A stretch of 64,000 nucleotides of DNA from Candidatus Kerfeldbacteria bacterium (GTDB taxonomy: Bacteria > Patescibacteriota > Patescibacteriia > SBBC01), in contig JACQPY010000013.1 of NCBI GenBank assembly GCA_016207275.1, forward strand, positions 20,285 through 84,284, written 5' to 3'. Below are positions 1,216 to 15,605 of the stretch, piece by piece; position 1 is the stretch's first letter; the number at the start of each line of letters is the position of its first letter. Below the pieces are notes generated by a model. That model did not search any database, had not been told where the DNA came from, and saw nothing but the letters and a program-made list of their open reading frames with translations. The position numbers were made by a program, and so were the translations under genes.

Positions 1216-1237
1216 ATCGTCGGCACGCAGGTACTTC

Positions 1238-1483
1238 CTGTTTATCCTTACATGCGCCGACGGCACGCTGTATACCGGGATCACGGTTGATCTCAAACGA
1301 CGAGTTGCCGAACACAACGCCTCGCGCCTGGGCGCGAAATACATATAGGGCGCCGGCCGGTACAATTGGTGTATAGCAAGAAATTCCCTTCTCGTTCCAC
1401 GGCCTTAAAAGGGGAGGCCCGGATCAAAGCCCTTTCGAAGACGGAAAAGCTACGGCTGGTCGTTAGAGTTTAGGGCTATCGTT
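1238..1483 (+). pseudogene. GIY-YIG nuclease family gene (UPF0213-like), disrupted by a stop/frameshift and lacking a start codon
   Basis: One frame reads LFILTCADGTLYTGITVDLKRRVAEHNASRLGAKYI*. The -1 frame continues (H)IGRRPVQLVYSKKFPSRSTALKGEARIKALSKTEKLRLV, which together match the GIY-YIG consensus YILRC.DGSLYTGIT.DL.RRL.EHN.G.GAKYTRGRRPVKLVY...R.EA..RE..IK.L. No in-frame ATG/GTG. Confidence 0.6.
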
Positions 1484-8518: not shown

Positions 8519-8617
8519 AGCTCCCCTCCCCTTGGAAAAGGGGAGGAGTATGACCCCTTGCCGTCGTTCGGCTTCGCCTCACTTCCTCCCCTCCCCTTGG
8601 AAAAGGGGAGGAGTATA
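8519..8617. repeat. Two copies of a 31-33 bp perfect-palindrome hairpin (CTCCCCTCCCC TTGGAAAA GGGGAGGAG TAT), separated by 33 bp
   Basis: Copies at 8519-8551 and 8585-8617. Same family as the hairpins at 18563-18630, 18780-18804 and 27524-27562. Confidence 0.6.
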
Positions 8618-8623
8618 AAAAGA

Positions 8624-8698
8624 GCGCCCCGCACCAATGTCATCCTGAGCCTTGTCCCGTCGAATGACGGGATGGTTTCAGGAACTGGTGCGGGGCGC
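8624..8698. other. 75-nt nested stem-loop (13-bp outer stem GCGCCCCGCACCA/TGGTGCGGGGCGC with two inner stems); structured-RNA or terminator candidate
   Basis: Perfect 13-bp outer stem, inner stems TCCTGA/TCAGGA and CCCGTC/GACGGG. Confidence 0.4.
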
Positions 8699-8718
8699 GA
8701 GATTTGCTTTTGAACGTG

Positions 8719-9726
8719 CTATGGCATGTGGGAGTAGCGGAATCGTTCTAGACCACGCCGCTTCGATAAAATCTCCCAACGGAAAACAAGCTCTGGGCTT
8801 CTTTCGTCAATTACTTCGAAGGAACCGTCATGGCGAACGATATAACCCTGGAACGTTCCAGAGATTCCTTTGATGAAGACTTGGTAGTTTTCTGAAAACT
8901 TTCGGGGAGACACCAGTCGATTAAATCTGAGATCAATGGGAATTCTAACCCGTCCGTCCTGGAGCTGCGCCGTACCCTCATGAGTTACCCAGAGCAATGC
9001 ATGGGGCAGAATCGTAAGCTCGTCTCGTTTCGATTTAAATTGTGAGCGGAGACGGGCGGCTCGTTTGGACGGTCCATCCTTTGGGGGACGACGGGCAATA
9101 GAGTCGAACATCGATTCAGTCGCTAGTTCACCGTTAAATCCAAGCAAGGTCATGATGTATTGACGCATGGGCACTTCACCGAGGAGAGCGAATACTCGGC
9201 TCGCCGTCTGTTCTTGAGCGCACCCAAGCTCAAGAGATAACGCGCTCTGTTCTAGATAGGCGTGAACCTCTTCTTCGAAGCGATCGATCATGACATCATA
9301 TGAGGTGTCAGGTAGGTCCGAGAACCGATTGAAGAGATATTGCCGGGAAGTTAACCCAAGTGCCGATCGAACGTGTTGATACTCATGCCAGAGGATGCAG
9401 TATTTAGTTTTAGTTGAGACATTTGGATTGTCAAAGGTATCCGGATTCAGCCTCAGGACTATGAGCGTATCACTGTTTGGTTGCACACTTAAATGAACGG
9501 ACGCCTGGTGGATCATTGATTCGGTTGCACTTAACTCGAAGCCAATTGCTACCCGCTCTGCATCGTAGAGTGAAACTAGGTTATGTCGGATCTCCACTCG
9601 TGGATGAGTTGCCATAAGTTGTTTCATCCGTTCGACGAACCCGAGCAAGTACTCAGGATCAGATTGAGTCACTGAGATTCCTGATGTTGCGAATACCAGA
9701 AACATCCAAATTGCAAAGCCCATCAC
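8719..9726 (-). CDS. Secreted hypothetical protein with an HExxH motif (putative zinc metallopeptidase-like); low-GC gene
   Basis: N-terminal signal peptide MMGFAIWMFLVFATSGISVTQS; motif CILWHEYQHVRSAL. About 47% GC against roughly 60% flanks. Confidence 0.5.
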   Translation of the reverse strand: MMGFAIWMFLVFATSGISVTQSDPEYLLGFVERMKQLMATHPRVEIRHNLVSLYDAERVAIGFELSATESMIHQASVHLSVQPNSDTLIVLRLNPDTFDNPNVSTKTKYCILWHEYQHVRSALGLTSRQYLFNRFSDLPDTSYDVMIDRFEEEVHAYLEQSALSLELGCAQEQTASRVFALLGEVPMRQYIMTLLGFNGELATESMFDSIARRPPKDGPSKRAARLRSQFKSKRDELTILPHALLWVTHEGTAQLQDGRVRIPIDLRFNRLVSPRKFSENYQVFIKGISGTFQGYIVRHDGSFEVIDERSPELVFRWEILSKRRGLERFRYSHMP

Positions 9727-9882: not shown

Positions 9883-10016
9883 AGCCGTCGCTAAAAGTCA
9901 GCGCCGTCGCAAAAATGATAGAATACAAAATTTGGTCTTCACAATCTCTCGAATTTTGGAGGAAAGAAGACGATTTTCCCATTGCGCCGTCGCCAAAAAG
10001 CGCCGTCGCAAGAAAA
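9883..10016 (+). repeat. Four copies of GCGCCGTCGC(A/C)AAAA (a fifth copy at 6784-6795)
   Basis: Copies at 9883-9897, 9901-9915, 9984-9998 and 9999-10016. The same decamer overlaps the asparaginase start at 6784-6795 next to a GCCGTC/GACGGC hairpin. Confidence 0.5.
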
Positions 10017-10181
10017 GTGGATAAAGTGCTAACAATTTCCATTATGACCAGATTCATCAGCGCCAAGCATCATAAAAAACCCGATCCAGCCTGGCCGGTC
10101 AGTCATTTCCAGCGCATCATCGCCACGATTCCGTGGTTGTCAACCTCGCCACGCCGCTCCACCGACCCCGCGCATGATGTT

Positions 10182-10327
10182 TCCGGCGGAGCCGGACCCC
10201 GCCGAATGGCTGGGCGGGGTCGAGTTGTTTCTACCCACGCACCAGCCCCGCCATTTGGCGGGACGGTGCGGGGTTCCGCTCCACGGAACCACGTATCGAG
10301 AGAAGCCACGGCCGTGAGGCCGTGGAG
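10182..10327 (+). ncRNA. Cluster of five consecutive GC-rich stem-loops (candidate structured ncRNA or leader); class not identified
   Basis: ccggcggagccgg; ccccgcc(gaatggctg)ggcgggg; ccccgcc(attt)ggcggg; ggttccg(ctcca)cggaacc; ccacggcc(gtga)ggccgtgg. No protein-like ORF (the 156-aa ORF is Arg/Pro low-complexity). Confidence 0.3.
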
Positions 10328-10381
10328 CTTCACCAGACGCGTTTCCCGGCAGCGCCGAACGTTGTGGGAGGTGTTGATTCC

Positions 10382-10468
10382 ATGATCCCGTTAGAGAGTC
10401 CTCTAAAAACCATAAAATGTTTTCGATGTGGGCTGAAAAGTTTATCGGCTAACTCTCTAACGGGATGA
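10382..10468 (+). CDS. 28-codon mini-ORF (MIPLESPLKTIKCFRCGLKSLSANSLTG) with a GGGAGG RBS, enclosed by a perfect 15-bp inverted repeat
   Basis: RBS GGGAGG at 10366-10371 lies 10 nt before the ATG. The IR is atcccgttagagagt (10385-10399) / actctctaacgggat (10452-10466). Leader-peptide or attenuator candidate. Confidence 0.3.
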   Translation: MIPLESPLKTIKCFRCGLKSLSANSLTG

Positions 10469-10792
10469 CCATAATATTGGTCCGGCTGAATTACTTCGGG
10501 CTCTTGCTGATTTTGCTCTTGATATGGCGCGTGATTTCTATGACTTAAGTAACGACCAGCAGCTCCGCTCCGCCCTGGTTGCGGTGGCACCAGGGGAGAG
10601 CGGAAAACCTGCCCCGTAGTCAACCGGAGGTTGTACTACTGGGGACCGATATCTCCACTTGTACATTACAAGCAGCCATGCACCGCGCGCCGCTTGGATG
10701 CATGGTGTAAAGGAGGTGATGACAGCTAATCGCGTGATTTCGTCTTGGTGATCGCAGTCTGGCAGTGAACCATGCAACGAAGGAGGAACCAC

Positions 10793-11248
10793 GTGAAACG
10801 CTTCAGGCTCGTAGCAGCGGGATTGGTCCTGCTCGTCACGGGCGTCATGAACCCGGTCGCCGCGCACGCAGTCGCGGTGTCGGGAAACGTCATGCTCGGA
10901 ACGAAGTCGACACAGGCAGTGGTTGCCGCGGTGCCGCTCGACGCTTCCACCGGCATCATCGATGCCGACCGCGCCGTAACGGTCTTTACCGGACTCAACG
11001 GTCGGTTCACCATCACTCCGCCGAGCGAGCAGTTCATGCTCGTGGCGTGGAATGGCAGCGACGCCGGGATCGTATTCGAACCAGTGAACGGCGTCACCAT
11101 CCATCTCCTTCGGCAGGATCCGCCGATTGTGACCGCCGCGAATACGTGGTGTACCTGCACCCGGCTCTTCTGGGGCTTGTACTACACGTGCTGGTGGGCG
11201 GACTGGGGAAAGATCGGCTGCGTCCTCTGGAAGGGTTGCCAGTGCTAG
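10793..11248 (+). CDS. Secreted Cys/Trp-rich small protein (bacteriocin-like)
   Basis: GTG start with an AAGGAGG RBS 7 nt upstream; signal peptide MKRFRLVAAGLVLLVTGVMNPVAAHA; C-terminus NTWCTCTRLFWGLYYTCWWADWGKIGCVLWKGCQC (6 Cys, 6 Trp in 35 aa). Confidence 0.55.
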   Translation: MKRFRLVAAGLVLLVTGVMNPVAAHAVAVSGNVMLGTKSTQAVVAAVPLDASTGIIDADRAVTVFTGLNGRFTITPPSEQFMLVAWNGSDAGIVFEPVNGVTIHLLRQDPPIVTAANTWCTCTRLFWGLYYTCWWADWGKIGCVLWKGCQC

Positions 11249-11324
11249 CGGACGGGGCGTTTGAGCAATCAAGCGCCCCGCTCAATCCCTCAACATTATT
11301 TATCAACGTAAGATTCTAACGTAT

Positions 11325-11585: not shown

Positions 11586-11656
11586 TTCCGCCCTGACGAC
11601 TCTCGGTGGCAGTCGTGATGACAGAATCGGTGGTGCGTAAAGAAAGGGAAAAGCAT

Positions 11657-12025
11657 ATGGATCTTAACCGCGTTACCCTGATCGGGAACCTGACCCGGGA
11701 CCCGCTCAAGAAGTCCGCCCCCAGCGGGCAGACGATCAGCCAGTTCTCGCTGGCGACCAACTACAGCTGGCAGGACGCCGCTACGAAGTCACGGAAGGAG
11801 AACGTCGAGTTCCACAATATCGTGGCCTGGGGCAAGCTGGCTGACATTGTCAACCAGTACGTCAAAAAGGGGAGCAAGGTCTACGTTGAAGGCCGGCTGC
11901 GGAATAGCTCCTGGAAAGACAAAGACGGCAAGCCGCAGCGCAAGACCGAAGTGGTGGCGGACAACCTGATCATGCTCGGTCACCGCGGCCAGCGTGAAGT
12001 GAAGTTGGCCGAACAATCGCAGTAA
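11657..12025 (+). CDS. ssb: Single-stranded DNA-binding protein
   Basis: MDLNRVTLIGNLTRDPLKK...ISQFSLATN...VEFHNIVAWGKLADIV...KVYVEGRLRNSSWKDKDGKPQ is an OB-fold SSB. RBS AAAGGGAAAAG; start set at the internal ATG rather than 11606. Confidence 0.85.
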   Translation: MDLNRVTLIGNLTRDPLKKSAPSGQTISQFSLATNYSWQDAATKSRKENVEFHNIVAWGKLADIVNQYVKKGSKVYVEGRLRNSSWKDKDGKPQRKTEVVADNLIMLGHRGQREVKLAEQSQ

Positions 12026-13006: not shown

Positions 13007-14212
13007 CTAGCGCGTCGTCCCGGGATACTGCTCGAGGGCGGCGGCCAGGATTTTGGCTGAGCGGTCGAGGGCCGGTTCGCCGAGGACATAGGCAATTCGC
13101 GCTTCGTGGTGGCCGAGGTTGGATGTGACGTAAAACCCCGGGCCCGGGGCCAGGGCCACGGTCTCGCCGTCCAGGTGGAACGACTCGACCAGCCATTGGC
13201 AGAAGCGCTCGCTCGAGTCAACGGGTAGGCTGAGCATGACGTAGAGGGCACCAGCGGGTTCGGCAAACCGAATCGAGGGGATGAGCTTCAAGGCCGCTGT
13301 TAAGGAACCGTTTCGACGAGCGTAGGTTTCAACCAAAGAATCGGTGAAGCGCACTGAATCGGCCAGCAACGGGACGACGGCCATTTGTTCGATGGTCGGC
13401 GAGGACAACCGACCTTGAGCAAACTTAAGGGCGGCGTCTATGACGGCTTGGTTGGTTGACGCGATGCAGCCGATCCGGGCACCGCAGCAGTTGAAGCGCT
13501 TGGACACGCTGTCGACGAGAATGACCCGGTCCTGAATTTCCGCGATTGAAGCGAAGCTGCGCGGCGGTTGGCCACGGAAGACGATCTCCCGGTACGTTTC
13601 GTCGGCAATAATGAAGAGGCCATGTACTCGGGCGATCTCGGCCAGGGCGCGCTGTTCGTCGTCGCTTAAGACTGCGCCAGTCGGATTGGCCGGGTTGCAG
13701 ACGATGATGGCGCGCGTTCGCCGGCTGATCTGTTGAGCAATGACCTTGGCTGGCGGCAGGCGGAAGCCGGTCTCGAGGGTGAGCCTGATCGGACGCAGGG
13801 TAATACCGGCCATCTGGGCAAAGGTGACGTAGTTGGGGTAGAGTGGCTCGAACACCAGGACTTCATCGCCCGGATCGGTTACGGCCAGCAGGGCAAAGAT
13901 GATCGCCTCGCTGCCGCCGGTGGTGACAATGATTTGATCGGTAGAAAAGTCGGTGCCGACCCGTCGAAAGTACCGTTGCCAGGCGGAAATGGTCTCGGGC
14001 AGGCCGGCCGAGGGAGCATAGGCGACCACCGGCTCGGCAAACTGTCGGACGATTGCAAGGAATTCGGGCGGGGTCGGTAGGTCGGGTTGACCGATGTTGA
14101 GCTGGTTGACCCGAACGCCGCGACCTCGGGCGGCGTCAGCCGCGGCCTGCAGCTTGCGGATGGGTGAGGCCGGCGTCTGCCGGGCGCGGTGTGAGCTGGT
14201 CGGAGTGTTCAT
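13007..14212 (-). CDS. Class I/II (fold type I) PLP-dependent aminotransferase (aspartate/aromatic family)
   Basis: 401 aa; PLP-lysine motif SVSKRF; GxxxD and NPxNPTG-like motif (CNPANPTGAVLS). Confidence 0.8.
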   Translation of the reverse strand: MNTPTSSHRARQTPASPIRKLQAAADAARGRGVRVNQLNIGQPDLPTPPEFLAIVRQFAEPVVAYAPSAGLPETISAWQRYFRRVGTDFSTDQIIVTTGGSEAIIFALLAVTDPGDEVLVFEPLYPNYVTFAQMAGITLRPIRLTLETGFRLPPAKVIAQQISRRTRAIIVCNPANPTGAVLSDDEQRALAEIARVHGLFIIADETYREIVFRGQPPRSFASIAEIQDRVILVDSVSKRFNCCGARIGCIASTNQAVIDAALKFAQGRLSSPTIEQMAVVPLLADSVRFTDSLVETYARRNGSLTAALKLIPSIRFAEPAGALYVMLSLPVDSSERFCQWLVESFHLDGETVALAPGPGFYVTSNLGHHEARIAYVLGEPALDRSAKILAAALEQYPGTTR

Positions 14213-14284
14213 CTAAGTTTGTGGGTTTGCTCGAGCAGCCACGGCGGCGTGTTCATGTGCGTGCCCACTCCTGGACGTAGTGTT

Positions 14285-14815
14285 CCTAAAGTTGTAATCC
14301 CGTACAGAGCTCCGGGGCATGGATTCGAACCATGATTCGCGGCTCTCCCGCACTTAGCTCGAGGGCAGGATTCTCCGCCAAAGGCGGATCCGCCTTCTCT
14401 TTAAATCTTTTAAGTCAAAGTGGCGGAGAACCATCATAAGCACCTCTTCACCCCGCCTTTGGCGGAAAAGGCCGCTGTCCGGCCCTGCGCTCGGGGACAG
14501 GGATTCGAACCCCGATTAACGGCTCTTCCGCACCTAAGCTCGGGGGGCAGGATTCGAACCTGCGTACTGGGCTCCAAAGGCCCATGTCCTACCGTTAGAC
14601 GACCCCCGAACTTAGGTGCGGAATAAACTCCGGCCGCTGCCTGTCCCGCACCCTACGTGGTGCGGGGTCCTACCATTTAGACGATCCCCGAGCTGAGGGC
14701 GGGATAAACTCCGGGCGGTGCCGTGCGTAAACTTCTTGACGTTTAATAATGTCCTACGTGCCCGTACCTCCCGCCTTGGCGGGATGGTGCGGGGCCGTTA
14801 GATCACCCCCCATCG
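14285..14815 (-). repeat. Array of tRNA-Gln-derived partial copies around the intact gene, plus a 13-bp inverted repeat enclosing the tRNA
   Basis: Two 3'-half-like copies (T-arm + acceptor 3' strand + discriminator G) near 14306-14340 and 14493-14525. 5'-half-like copies (acceptor + D-arm) at 14667-14691 and about 14786-14812. The IR is TTCCGCACCTAAG (14526-14538) / CTTAGGTGCGGAA (14611-14623). Confidence 0.65.
14539..14609 (-). tRNA. tRNA-Gln (anticodon UUG), 71 nt, CCA not encoded
   Basis: Reverse complement reads TCGGGGG TC GTCT AACGGTA GGAC A TGGGC CTTTGGA GCCCA GTAC GCAGG TTCGAAT CCTGC CCCCCGA G. It has the U1:A72 pair and G73 typical of bacterial tRNA-Gln, and a canonical T-loop. Confidence 0.85.
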
Positions 14816-14897
14816 CGGTTTGCAGTGTACGTGAAATCGATGTCCGGAACAAGGGTATCGAGCAGTCCCGAGTCCAGTCTATGGTACAATACACTCC

Positions 14898-15605
14898 ATG
14901 GTATCTCGCAGGCATGACCGCCGCGCGTCAGCCGCTAACGAACGGCACTACCAGCCGTTTGCCTTTCGGCACGACATCACCAGGCGGTTGGTCCGGGTTA
15001 TGGGTGAGTTTACCGAGGGTTTTGAGCTGCTGGCTTCGCTCCGACGACCAGTGACTTTTTTCGGCTCGGCGCGGATTGGTAAGGACAGCGGGTACTACCA
15101 GGCTGCCCGACAGCTAGCGCGGAAGTTAGGCCGGGCTGGTTTTACCATCGTCACCGGCGGCGGGCCGGGATTGATGGAGGCGGCTAATCGCGGGGCGGTT
15201 GAAGCTAAAGCCCCGTCGATCGGCCTCAACATCCAGCTGCCCCGGGAGCAACGGGTTAACGCCTACGTCCGTCGAGGCATGGGGTTCTTCTACTTCTTTT
15301 CCCGTAAGACGATGTTGACGACCTCGGCCCAGGCCTACGTTTTTTTCCCGGGCGGCTTCGGTACGCTTGATGAATTCTTTTCCATCGTGACGCTGATTCA
15401 AACGAAAAAGATTGAACCACGGCCGATCGTCTTGTTCGGCCGAGACTACTGGCGGAAGCTTAACTACTTCATTAAAGAGAACATGGTTCGACGGCACCGG
15501 ACGATTGCGCCCCGAGACCTGCAGGAGTACCGCATTACTGACGACGTTGACGAAGCCTATCATTGGGTGCGACAATCAAAAGAGCGACGGTACACTTCAA
15601 TGTGA
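14898..15605 (+). CDS. LOG-family (TIGR00730) cytokinin riboside 5'-monophosphate phosphoribohydrolase-like protein
   Basis: GGGPGLMEAANRGA...PGGFGTLDEFF. TGgTACAAT extended -10 box 8 nt before the ATG. An internal start at MGEFTEG (about 15000) is possible. Confidence 0.75.
   Translation: MVSRRHDRRASAANERHYQPFAFRHDITRRLVRVMGEFTEGFELLASLRRPVTFFGSARIGKDSGYYQAARQLARKLGRAGFTIVTGGGPGLMEAANRGAVEAKAPSIGLNIQLPREQRVNAYVRRGMGFFYFFSRKTMLTTSAQAYVFFPGGFGTLDEFFSIVTLIQTKKIEPRPIVLFGRDYWRKLNYFIKENMVRRHRTIAPRDLQEYRITDDVDEAYHWVRQSKERRYTSM

Follow-up and report, generated by a model that had tools for sequence, protein, structure and literature searches.

We analyzed a 64,000-nucleotide stretch of DNA from a Candidatus Kerfeldbacteria bacterium (GenBank assembly GCA_016207275.1, contig JACQPY010000013.1), referred to here as the window, and within it a tRNA-Gln locus at 14298-14815 that is read on the minus strand and that probably represents a tRNA-Gln gene invaded, more than once, by a small cassette carrying a tRNA-Gln of its own. 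Coordinates are window positions, and L-numbers denote the compared loci. A single tRNA, Gln(UUG), was identified in the whole window, on the minus strand (ARAGORN 14538-14609; Rfam RF00005 14539-14609), with an RF00005 score of 64 bits (E = 1.4e-11) against a gathering score of 29. Its ends read TCGGGGG and CCCCCGA-G, so that both the U1-A72 pair and the G73 discriminator, which are typical of bacterial tRNA-Gln, are present. ARAGORN with intron models and lowered thresholds found no second tRNA in 14200-14900, the 80% threshold adding 1 overlapping chimera that was judged spurious, and RF00005 was the only Rfam 15 family matched in the whole window, with sub-threshold hits in 14000-15100 at chance level. 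An earlier note, made on this DNA by reading alone, had counted exactly 1 intact tRNA here, and both programs agree with it, leaving 14539-14609 as the sole functional-looking tRNA of the locus.

This tRNA is held between the 2 strands of a clamp. As the earlier note had described, TTCCGCACCTAAG (14526-14538) and 14611-14623 are exact reverse complements that flank the tRNA, and together with the acceptor stem they make a 21-nt inverted repeat that is 95% complementary. The same note had suggested looking for the 13-bp repeat near other tRNAs; searched for within the window, the 13-mer has no further exact copy, and only 2 unrelated sites resemble it, at 2 mismatches.

Around the clamped tRNA we located 4 half copies of tRNA-Gln, in the places where at least 4 partial copies (2 3'-like and 2 5'-like) had been reported: 5' halves at 14667-14691 and 14751-14812, the latter degenerate, and 3' halves at 14490-14518 and 14310-14334. 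The acceptor strands TCGGGGA (14685-14691) and TCCCCGA (14491-14497) are perfect complements, confirming at 7 of 7 pairs the complementarity that had been noticed between these halves. The inner tRNA and its clamp occupy the former place of the anticodon loop of an older gene, of which the acceptor, D, anticodon-stem, and T-arm parts remain on both sides; the outer anticodon loop has been replaced by linker, clamp, and inner tRNA, and on both sides of the composite there are decayed 5' and 3' pieces that are older still. No complete cloverleaf with a 7-nt anticodon loop was found in the outer shells, and no scanner setting calls them. When the minus strand of 14485-14700 was folded, as the earlier note had proposed, the minimum-energy structure was the nested one, running from outer acceptor stem through D arm, hairpin, and clamp with inner cloverleaf to the outer T arm (z = -6.5 against shuffles).

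The origin of the outer shell can be followed in Candidatus Portnoybacteria (the L230 family), where the composite lies directly downstream of dnaX and where occupied and empty alleles coexist at one genomic site among related genomes. At this site, L284, L285, and L282 carry a plain, intact tRNA-Gln, L280/L281 carry a nested tRNA-Gln with a GIY-YIG nuclease gene, and the L230 family and L268 carry a nested tRNA-Gln without the nuclease gene. The plain gene of L284 is identical to the outer shell of the L230 family at 18 of 18 positions at the 5' end and 25 of 29 at the 3' end, a match that shows the shell to be, by its sequence, the former resident tRNA-Gln gene. The proposal that a tRNA-Gln-like gene was interrupted by a segment with a second tRNA-Gln is thereby supported, with the plain, ancestral-type arrangement visible in L284, and none of the homologous loci is the ordinary multi-tRNA operon that the earlier note had set against its own proposal. 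The order in L280/L281 is outer 5' part, GIY-YIG gene of 85 amino acids, clamp, tRNA-Gln, clamp, and outer 3' part, with the insert bounded by a direct repeat of ~55 nt; the inserts of L280 and L237 are flanked by target repeats of 55-60 nt. The inner tRNA of L230 is 55/71 identical to the resident gene of L284 and 68/71 identical to its counterpart in a Saccharibacteria locus. When L230 is compared with L238/L267, the composite differs at 0/86, 0/71, and 1/48 positions (the first and last being its 5' and 3' parts), against 41/292 (14%) at the adjacent end of dnaX, an invariance that reflects either strong constraint or recent spread with co-conversion.

Past the outer 3' acceptor, sequence and genes differ wholly among the close Portnoybacteria loci L230, L238, L247, L267, and L268, with glycogen synthase and GH57 genes in one lineage and an ECF sigma factor in another. 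A short downstream motif, GACCGAGAC, is common to only 3 of these 5 loci, and the composite marks a synteny breakpoint.

The nested design was identified in at least 4 lineages of the candidate phyla radiation (CPR), namely Kerfeldbacteria, Buchananbacteria, Portnoybacteria, and Saccharibacteria. As background, we used ~116 tRNA-Gln(UUG) loci from many phyla, drawing on the matches listed for a generic tRNA-Gln core pattern, most of which were from Acidobacteria; a family-specific DNA pattern gave zero matches in the genome-contig collection. Among the matches listed, uninterrupted leader/trailer pairing reached at most 4 bp in 109 of the ~116 loci, and helices of at least 14 bp were present only in the window, L100, and 2 Saccharibacteria metagenome-assembled genomes (MAGs; L126 and L185), all of them CPR loci with extra halves. 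Apart from these Kerfeldbacteria loci, the 2 Saccharibacteria loci were the only ones in that scan, again among the matches listed, with both an extra upstream D arm and an extra downstream T arm; a Buchananbacteria MAG had an 8-bp leader/trailer pairing, and decayed halves are visible in its sequence though the motif scan missed them. With mismatches allowed, 27 of 93 tRNA-Gln genes in the CPR and metagenome sets had 10 or more of 12 leader/trailer positions paired, as did 1 of 89 tRNA-Gln genes from outside the CPR; the count was 0 of 183 for tRNAs of other kinds.

A metagenome scan for 2 tRNA-Gln D arms spaced 58-88 nt apart returned 54 loci, 34 of which consisted of an uncalled 5' half followed by 1 intact tRNA-Gln with anticodon UUG or CUG. 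Because this sample was picked by a tRNA-Gln-specific pattern, the restriction to Gln is shown only against other tRNAs in the same loci. The inner tRNA lies in the anticodon loop of the outer gene in the window, L229, the L230 family, L268, L231/L273, L249, and L221, in the D loop in L100, L255, L185/L250, L264, and L265, and in the T loop in L224/L241/L269 and L252. The locus is shown to be a member of a widespread, CPR-restricted tRNA-in-tRNA class specific to tRNA-Gln, and the nested layout is neither a product of chance nor private to the window's genome. A corresponding scan of viral contigs for double 5' halves yielded 3 ordinary tandem arrays. Three metagenome loci (L226, L233, and L248) show the 5' fragment ATCGTCTAACGG upstream of an intact tRNA-Gln(CUG), with its own reverse complement CCxTTAGACGAT following within ~25 nt; they are inverted partial duplications, a type of scar other than the nested one.

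Covariation was analyzed for the outer acceptor stem, the outer anticodon stem, and the clamp in 8 homologous composites of the anticodon-loop type, extracted by hand. Standard pairs occupied 92.9% of cells, compared with 78.6% in shuffled controls and 28-44% when partners were slid by 1-3 columns, and compensatory double changes were identified at 12 of 26 pairs; 0 of 500 shuffles reached the observed values. There were 16 G·U cells against 2 A·C cells, an excess indicative of selection on the pairing of RNA read in the same direction as the tRNA. The clamp is conserved through compensatory change, and since the helix covaries and G·U far exceeds A·C, it is probably a folding or processing stem that acts at the RNA level.

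The nuclease seen in L280/L281 recurs at tRNA-Gln genes. Open reading frames (ORFs) of the GIY-YIG family (Pfam E = 1e-13 to 1e-20, 72-85 amino acids) were identified at most 103 nt from tRNA-Gln, on the same strand, in 6 independent loci (L100, L237, L280/281, L149, L242, and L162). In a profile search of ~1.2 Mb of loci, these tRNA-Gln-adjacent ORFs made up 6 of 9 independent GIY-YIG hits, the other 3 lying elsewhere. No degraded GIY-YIG remnant was found by the profile search, in six frames, in the other nuclease-less composites. The window also contains a YhbQ-like GIY-YIG pseudogene at 1229-1464 (+), just past a membrane-protein gene (499-1215) and with no tRNA adjoining; its halves lie in different frames, with a stop or frameshift near 1343-1350, and when joined they match Pfam PF01541 at E = 3.7e-14.

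The closest relative available is L100, from another Kerfeldbacteria genome (GCA_016204645.1), a congener whose LOG protein is 80% identical to that of the window. It has one tRNA-Gln(UUG) next to LOG in the opposite orientation, and the entire array is turned around with respect to that gene. In the window, the outermost 5' fragment, leader, and level-2 5' half are colinear with L100:190-310, yet the working tRNAs are only 56/71 identical, the clamp differs in sequence (TTCCTGAGCGCAGC / GCTGCGCTCAGGAA), and the inner tRNA sits in the outer D loop in L100 and in the anticodon loop in the window.

In L100 the GIY-YIG ORF (319-660, +) has no stop before the tRNA and runs through the clamp and the whole tRNA-Gln to end past the 3' clamp, and the GIY-YIG ORF of L237 likewise reads through clamp and tRNA, which suggests that nuclease expression and excision of the tRNA from the transcript could be coupled in these 2 loci. 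Further, L100:650-718 (+) is an interrupted, level-2 tRNA-Gln-like gene with a well-formed anticodon arm and the loop CTTTAGA; its anticodon, UUA, would read the stop codon UAA and is probably a G36-to-A change in a dead gene.

The features of the window locus are collected in Table 1, in the order in which they are met on the minus strand.

Table 1. Features of the nested tRNA-Gln locus, from the outermost 5' fragment to the outermost 3' block
Feature	Positions	Strand	Sequence or parts	Remarks
Outermost degenerate 5' fragment	14751-14812	-	TGGGGGG-TGA-TCT-AACGG, D-loop hairpin CCCCGCACC...GTACGGG, TAGGAC	
Second leader block	14692-14722	-	GGCACCGCCCGGAGTTTAT + CCCGCCCTCAGC	Upstream of outer 5' half; imperfect pairing with 14478-14490 and 14346-14357
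Outer shell, 5' half	14667-14691	-	TCGGGGA, TC, D arm GTCT-AAATGGTA-GGAC	Orthologous to level-2 5' half L100:286-301
GC-rich hairpin	14645-14666	-	CCCGCACC-ACGTAG-GGTGCGGG	Inserted between outer D arm and anticodon stem
Outer anticodon stem, 5' strand	14633-14637	-	GCGGC	Pairs with GCCGT 14519-14523 in the minimum-energy fold; same in L230, L268, L231, L249
Linker	14624-14632	-	CGGAGTTTA (then (T))	Between outer anticodon-stem strand and clamp
Clamp, 5' strand (leader)	14610-14623	-	TTCCGCACCTAAGT	Pairs with trailer, lengthening the acceptor stem to ~21 bp; 12/12 paired; covarying homologous clamps elsewhere
Intact tRNA-Gln(UUG)	14539-14609	-		71 nt including discriminator G73; U1-A72; CCA not encoded; ARAGORN, Rfam RF00005, cloverleaf
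Clamp, 3' strand (trailer)	14526-14538	-	CTTAGGTGCGGAA	Inverted-repeat, pairing, and covariation analyses
Outer shell, 3' part	14490-14523	-	GCCGT, variable TAAT, T arm CGGGG-TTCGAAT-CCCTG, acceptor TCCCCGA, discriminator G	
Outer-shell trailer	14478-14489	-	CGCAGGGCCGGA	Paralogue of clamp 3' strand; 49-nt period, 15/19
Decayed tRNA-Gln-like remnant	14358-14481	-	GGAC-A-GCGGC-CTTTT, then hairpin CCGCC-AAA-GGCGG	
Outermost 3' block	14298-14357	-	Clamp-like CTAAGTGCGGGA, GA, GCCGC, GAAT, T arm, acceptor CCCCGGA, G, trailer CTCTGTACGGGA	

Within the shell, the motif CCGGAGTTTAT of the linker occurs twice, with the second copy at 14704-14714, and related motifs stand in the same place in L100 (GGAGCTAAT) and L126 (GGAGTTCAAT); GA lies between the 3' strand of the clamp and the outer GCCGT strand. 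The second leader block shows direct-repeat identity of 88% at a period of 81-82 nt, is colinear with L100, and takes part in a weaker second leader/trailer helix (14692-14704 with 14478-14490, 85% of 20). The outermost 5' fragment is colinear with L100:190-250, and its D-loop hairpin, which is homologous to that of the L230 family (23/28), contains a nested hairpin, CCCGCC-AA-GGCGGG (14770-14783). In the decayed remnant, the T loop is split by an insertion (TTC at 14428-14430, GAATCC at 14368-14373) and the 3' acceptor end, CCTCGA-G, carries a 1-nt deletion; a direct-repeat copy lies at 14346-14379. Homologous 3' flanks are present in L243 and L247, and L237 and L126 have homologous hairpins in the anticodon loop. 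In the outermost 3' block the T arm (CATGG-TTCGAAT-CCATG) is perfect; the block is 76% identical to its paralogue 14478-14536 (40/52 at 180-nt spacing) and resembles the 3' part of the L268 scaffold. The direct repeats recur every ~81 nt on the 5' side and every ~49 nt on the 3' side, with the 3' block copied at 180-nt spacing; the 2 periods are the spacing expected from unequal recombination between look-alike outer and inner halves.

Hairpin insertions like the one at 14645-14666 were identified in the D, anticodon, and T loops of other composites, where they are GC-rich and frequent in outer pieces. Elsewhere in the window, at 8622-8700 (+), there is a hairpin of ~75 nt with a perfect 13-bp closing stem (GCGCCCCGCACCA / TGGTGCGGGGCGC) and a fold z of -7.0, which shares the 8-mer CCCGCACC/GGTGCGGG with that insertion. 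The hairpin inside it, TCCCGTC-GAAT-GACGGGA, is similar to one inserted into the L221 T loop, and 2 copies of a CTCCCCTCCCCTTGGAAAAGGGGAGGAG hairpin (8521-8552 and 8586-8617) lie upstream; in Rfam, the region has chance-level, microRNA-like matches only.

We give a probability of roughly 60% to the reading that the window locus is a nuclease-less, multi-layer relic of a mobile cassette, made up of a GIY-YIG nuclease gene and a replacement tRNA-Gln, in which the inner tRNA alone would still work. The cassette would be, or would descend from, a free-standing GIY-YIG gene accompanied by a tRNA-Gln. Its nuclease is proposed to break the resident tRNA-Gln gene, and repair would then copy the cassette in, often with partial duplication of the target, leaving a cell that would depend on the cassette tRNA; the nuclease gene could later be lost, as would have happened in the window. 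Extra 5' and 3' half copies would come from unequal recombination between the near-identical outer and inner halves. The leader/trailer helix is probably kept by RNA-level selection, and it probably either shields the inner cloverleaf from mispairing with the look-alike halves beside it or serves as a double-strand processing stem ahead of RNase P, 3' trimming, and CCA addition. Turnover and a foreign origin of the inner tRNA are suggested by the window and L100, which share layers though their inner tRNAs are so different and lie in different loops, and by the closeness of the L230 inner tRNA to that of Saccharibacteria.

Several observations weigh against the cassette reading. Neither a GIY-YIG gene nor a remnant of one was found in 14298-14815 by the profile search in six frames, and the sole GIY-YIG sequence of the window is the pseudogene 13 kb away; because the gene is present in homologous loci and absent here, the window locus can only be a nuclease-less derivative. 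Among composite loci, just ~6 of ~45 have the nuclease gene, and the encoded proteins of 72-85 amino acids consist of the catalytic domain alone, without the recognisable DNA-binding domain of proven homing endonucleases. Insertion points lie variously in the D, anticodon, or T loop, a spread that would be unusual for a single sequence-specific enzyme. Further, the covariation result comes from an alignment of just 8 sequences, extracted by hand. Compensatory changes are present in the outer acceptor stem, and the shell of the L230 family is as conserved as the tRNA itself; both observations are as compatible with a functional scaffold as with recent spread and co-conversion.

The main rival, which we consider unlikely as a replacement for the cassette reading, is that the locus is a functional nested precursor: the outer shell would be a conserved RNA scaffold of acceptor stem, D arm, clamp-extended anticodon stem, and T arm, co-transcribed with the inner tRNA and selected for folding, stability, processing, or protein binding. 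It gains from the near-invariance of the L230 shell beside a diverged dnaX end, from an outer acceptor helix that is 98% paired across homologous composites with compensatory double changes at 4 of 7 pairs, from the ratio of 16 G·U to 2 A·C cells, which argues for selection on the tRNA strand as RNA, and from a nested fold far more stable than its shuffles (z ~ -6.5 to -7.4). Yet L284, L285, and L282 manage with a plain tRNA-Gln at the same site, and the shells decay at different places: L185 lacks the 3' acceptor, L265 has scrambled anticodon and T arms, the T arm of L247 is broken by a hairpin, and only a 5' stub is left in L228, L236, L242, and L257. Identity across diverged backgrounds is also given by recent horizontal spread with co-conversion, and the compensatory differences in the outer acceptor may be older than the insertion, given that the resident tRNA-Gln gene varies from lineage to lineage. 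Since the helices covary at the RNA level, the precursor idea remains a rival of the cassette reading or a complement to it.

Purely local duplication (replication slippage or unequal crossing-over inside tandem tRNA-Gln genes or between them) with subsequent decay could produce a 5'-5'-tRNA-3'-3' order without any mobile element or nuclease, and the ~81-nt and 49-nt periods, the paralogous 3' block at 180-nt spacing, the tandem Gln-Gln and Gln-Gln-Gln arrays of metagenomes (such as L232, L266, and L270), and the near identity of outer and inner copies in several loci (1 difference in L252; L264 and L250 near-identical) all agree with it. It leaves unexplained why the inner tRNA stands exactly within the outer loop with a covarying inverted repeat, why that tRNA can match one from another CPR class at 68/71 positions and the resident gene at just 55/71, why GIY-YIG genes recur within inserts, and why plain and nested alleles share one site. 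Local duplication probably accounts for the extra layers that followed the first nesting and not for the first nesting, and as a complete explanation we judge it improbable. Serial scars of integrase attachment (att) sites, left as partial tRNAs by tRNA-Gln-targeting elements that came and went, were offered in the earlier note and fare worst, to the point of being very improbable. In their favour, integration at tRNA genes is classic, close relatives differ in the sequence that follows the composite, and double T arms within ~50 nt were identified in 90 viral or proviral contigs, where they are probably att remnants. But duplication of the integrase type copies the 3' part only, and here there are 5' halves with D arms (14667-14691 and 14751-14812) besides the 3' ones, all pieces nest around a full tRNA within ~130 nt, and no integrase, recombinase, or transposase was found within ~7 kb of the locus or beside the homologous loci L238 and L247. 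The Pfam scan behind this result, of 10 neighbouring ORFs at 7.8-22.3 kb, returned housekeeping families only, in line with the remark in the earlier note that no integrase lies nearby.

Other candidates were rejected. A tRNA mimic of the Y-RNA/YrlA type next to RtcB/Rsr does not fit, the neighbouring gene being an aminotransferase and Rfam giving no match. That the outer shell is a tRNA with an intron, or one that could be spliced, is not borne out by the intron models of ARAGORN, which find nothing, and no anticodon can be rebuilt from the junctions. A group I intron was dismissed, as there is no Intron_gpI match in 14000-15100 at the gathering threshold or at E up to 10, and the insert, of ~110-130 nt, is mostly tRNA. 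A spliced or split tRNA of the archaeal type is at odds with a junction helix that is a continuous 21-nt duplex without 3-nt bulges and with a bacterial gene content (SSB, Obg, XseA). A non-autonomous transposon resembling a miniature inverted-repeat transposable element would have the inverted repeat, but the clamp sequence is not repeated anywhere else in the 64 kb, dispersed copies were not observed, and the flanking direct repeats vary from ~9 to ~60 nt, unlike a fixed target-site duplication.

Among known systems, a close parallel to the cassette reading is SegB of phage T4, a GIY-YIG homing endonuclease that recognises a conserved tRNA T-loop motif and spreads adjacent tRNA genes (PMC2330249), and that in T4/T6 drives tandem amplification of tRNA and segB units by homologous recombination (PMC13096335). 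Shared with the present loci are a GIY-YIG gene directly beside tRNA genes, where SegB promotes inheritance of its neighbours, and recombination-dependent amplification of tRNA and nuclease units that leaves truncated copies behind. The present loci differ in being chromosomal in CPR bacteria and not in phages, in a nuclease of 72-85 amino acids that is a catalytic domain without DNA-binding domain, and in an apparent target that is one essential tRNA gene, Gln, which is destroyed and replaced by the cassette copy, giving a nested and not a tandem result; in the window the nuclease gene has moreover been lost.

The tRNA introns of Patescibacteria, of the same phylum, are likewise insertions in the loop of a tRNA gene, with position 35/36 of the anticodon loop as a hotspot, and likewise selfish insertions rendered harmless by restored tRNA function. 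Here, by contrast, there is no ribozyme (no Rfam group I match) in an insert of ~110-130 nt, and function is restored by a whole second tRNA gene instead of by splicing; a recent survey of these introns makes no mention of tRNA-Gln or nested tRNAs. Integrative elements at tRNA genes also enter an essential tRNA gene, bring sequence that keeps the tRNA working, and leave partial copies at their borders, whereas the present loci have no integrase, bring a complete tRNA and not a 3' segment, and retain both 5' and 3' pieces of the former gene, tightly nested about its replacement. In archaea, a C/D box small RNA lies inside the intron of pre-tRNA-Trp. Disrupted archaeal tRNA genes, which include split, permuted, and multi-intron tRNAs (reviewed in PMC4390854 and PMC4033280), resemble the present locus in halves held by complementary flanks and in an RNA gene that can nest in the anticodon-loop region. 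The present genome, however, is bacterial, the flanking helix of the locus is continuous and so leaves no bulge-helix-bulge motif, the host tRNA lacks an anticodon and cannot be restored by splicing, and the nested RNA is itself the functional tRNA. No account of such an arrangement came up in literature searches on bacterial tRNA genes that are nested or disrupted in CPR. Compared with known homing-endonuclease cassettes beside tRNA genes and with disrupted tRNA genes, the whole replacement tRNA, the minimal nuclease, the nested fossils, and the covarying flanking stem are unusual.

A wider proposal is more tentative, and we hold it with somewhat less than even confidence: CPR may harbour an undescribed class of active selfish tRNA-replacement elements, each pairing a minimal GIY-YIG nuclease of catalytic domain only with its own tRNA-Gln and a conserved, flanking RNA-level stem, that break the single resident gene in a loop and make the cell dependent on them; repeated invasions would leave nested fossils, and the dead outer tRNA may become a scaffold of the precursor. 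If true, replacement by a whole tRNA would be a third route by which a selfish insertion survives in an essential tRNA gene, beside the self-splicing intron and the 3' end supplied by an integrase. It would also account for odd CPR tRNA-Gln fragments that annotation pipelines pass over, offer a readable fossil record of successive invasions, hint at a function for widespread, uncharacterised GIY-YIG proteins of 70-100 amino acids, and mean that distant CPR lineages can exchange an essential tRNA. In organisms whose RNA-processing machinery is reduced, the covarying leader/trailer stem offers a case of unusual pre-tRNA processing that can be tested.

Independent Logan assemblies from 3 runs match both flanks of the window locus base for base, to 14518 and from 14576/14577. 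Given these identical flanks and the homologous architectures in other genomes, the locus is not an assembly artefact, the Logan coverage being of the flanks only. The flank-covering Logan contigs all stop at 14518 and 14576/14577, with 57 nt between, inside the repeated T-arm region, and the shared ends suggest a branch of the assembly graph caused by repeats or by strain variation.

The neighbouring genes are of the housekeeping kind (aminotransferase, LOG, Obg, thioredoxin reductase, XseA, and SSB), and the LOG-family protein adjoining the locus is 100% identical to a Candidatus Kerfeldbacteria MAG protein. Homologues of the aminotransferase, used as a route to orthologous loci, were at best 57% identical, and none had an upstream tRNA. 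A scan of 14150-14950 found neither a sigma-70 promoter nor an intrinsic terminator; that the GGAGTTTAT motif might be a -10 box is a guess. Further off, between an ORF of 335 amino acids (8719-9726) and SSB (11606-12025), the segment at 9915-11320 contains several long overlapping ORFs on both strands, without a clear coding frame.

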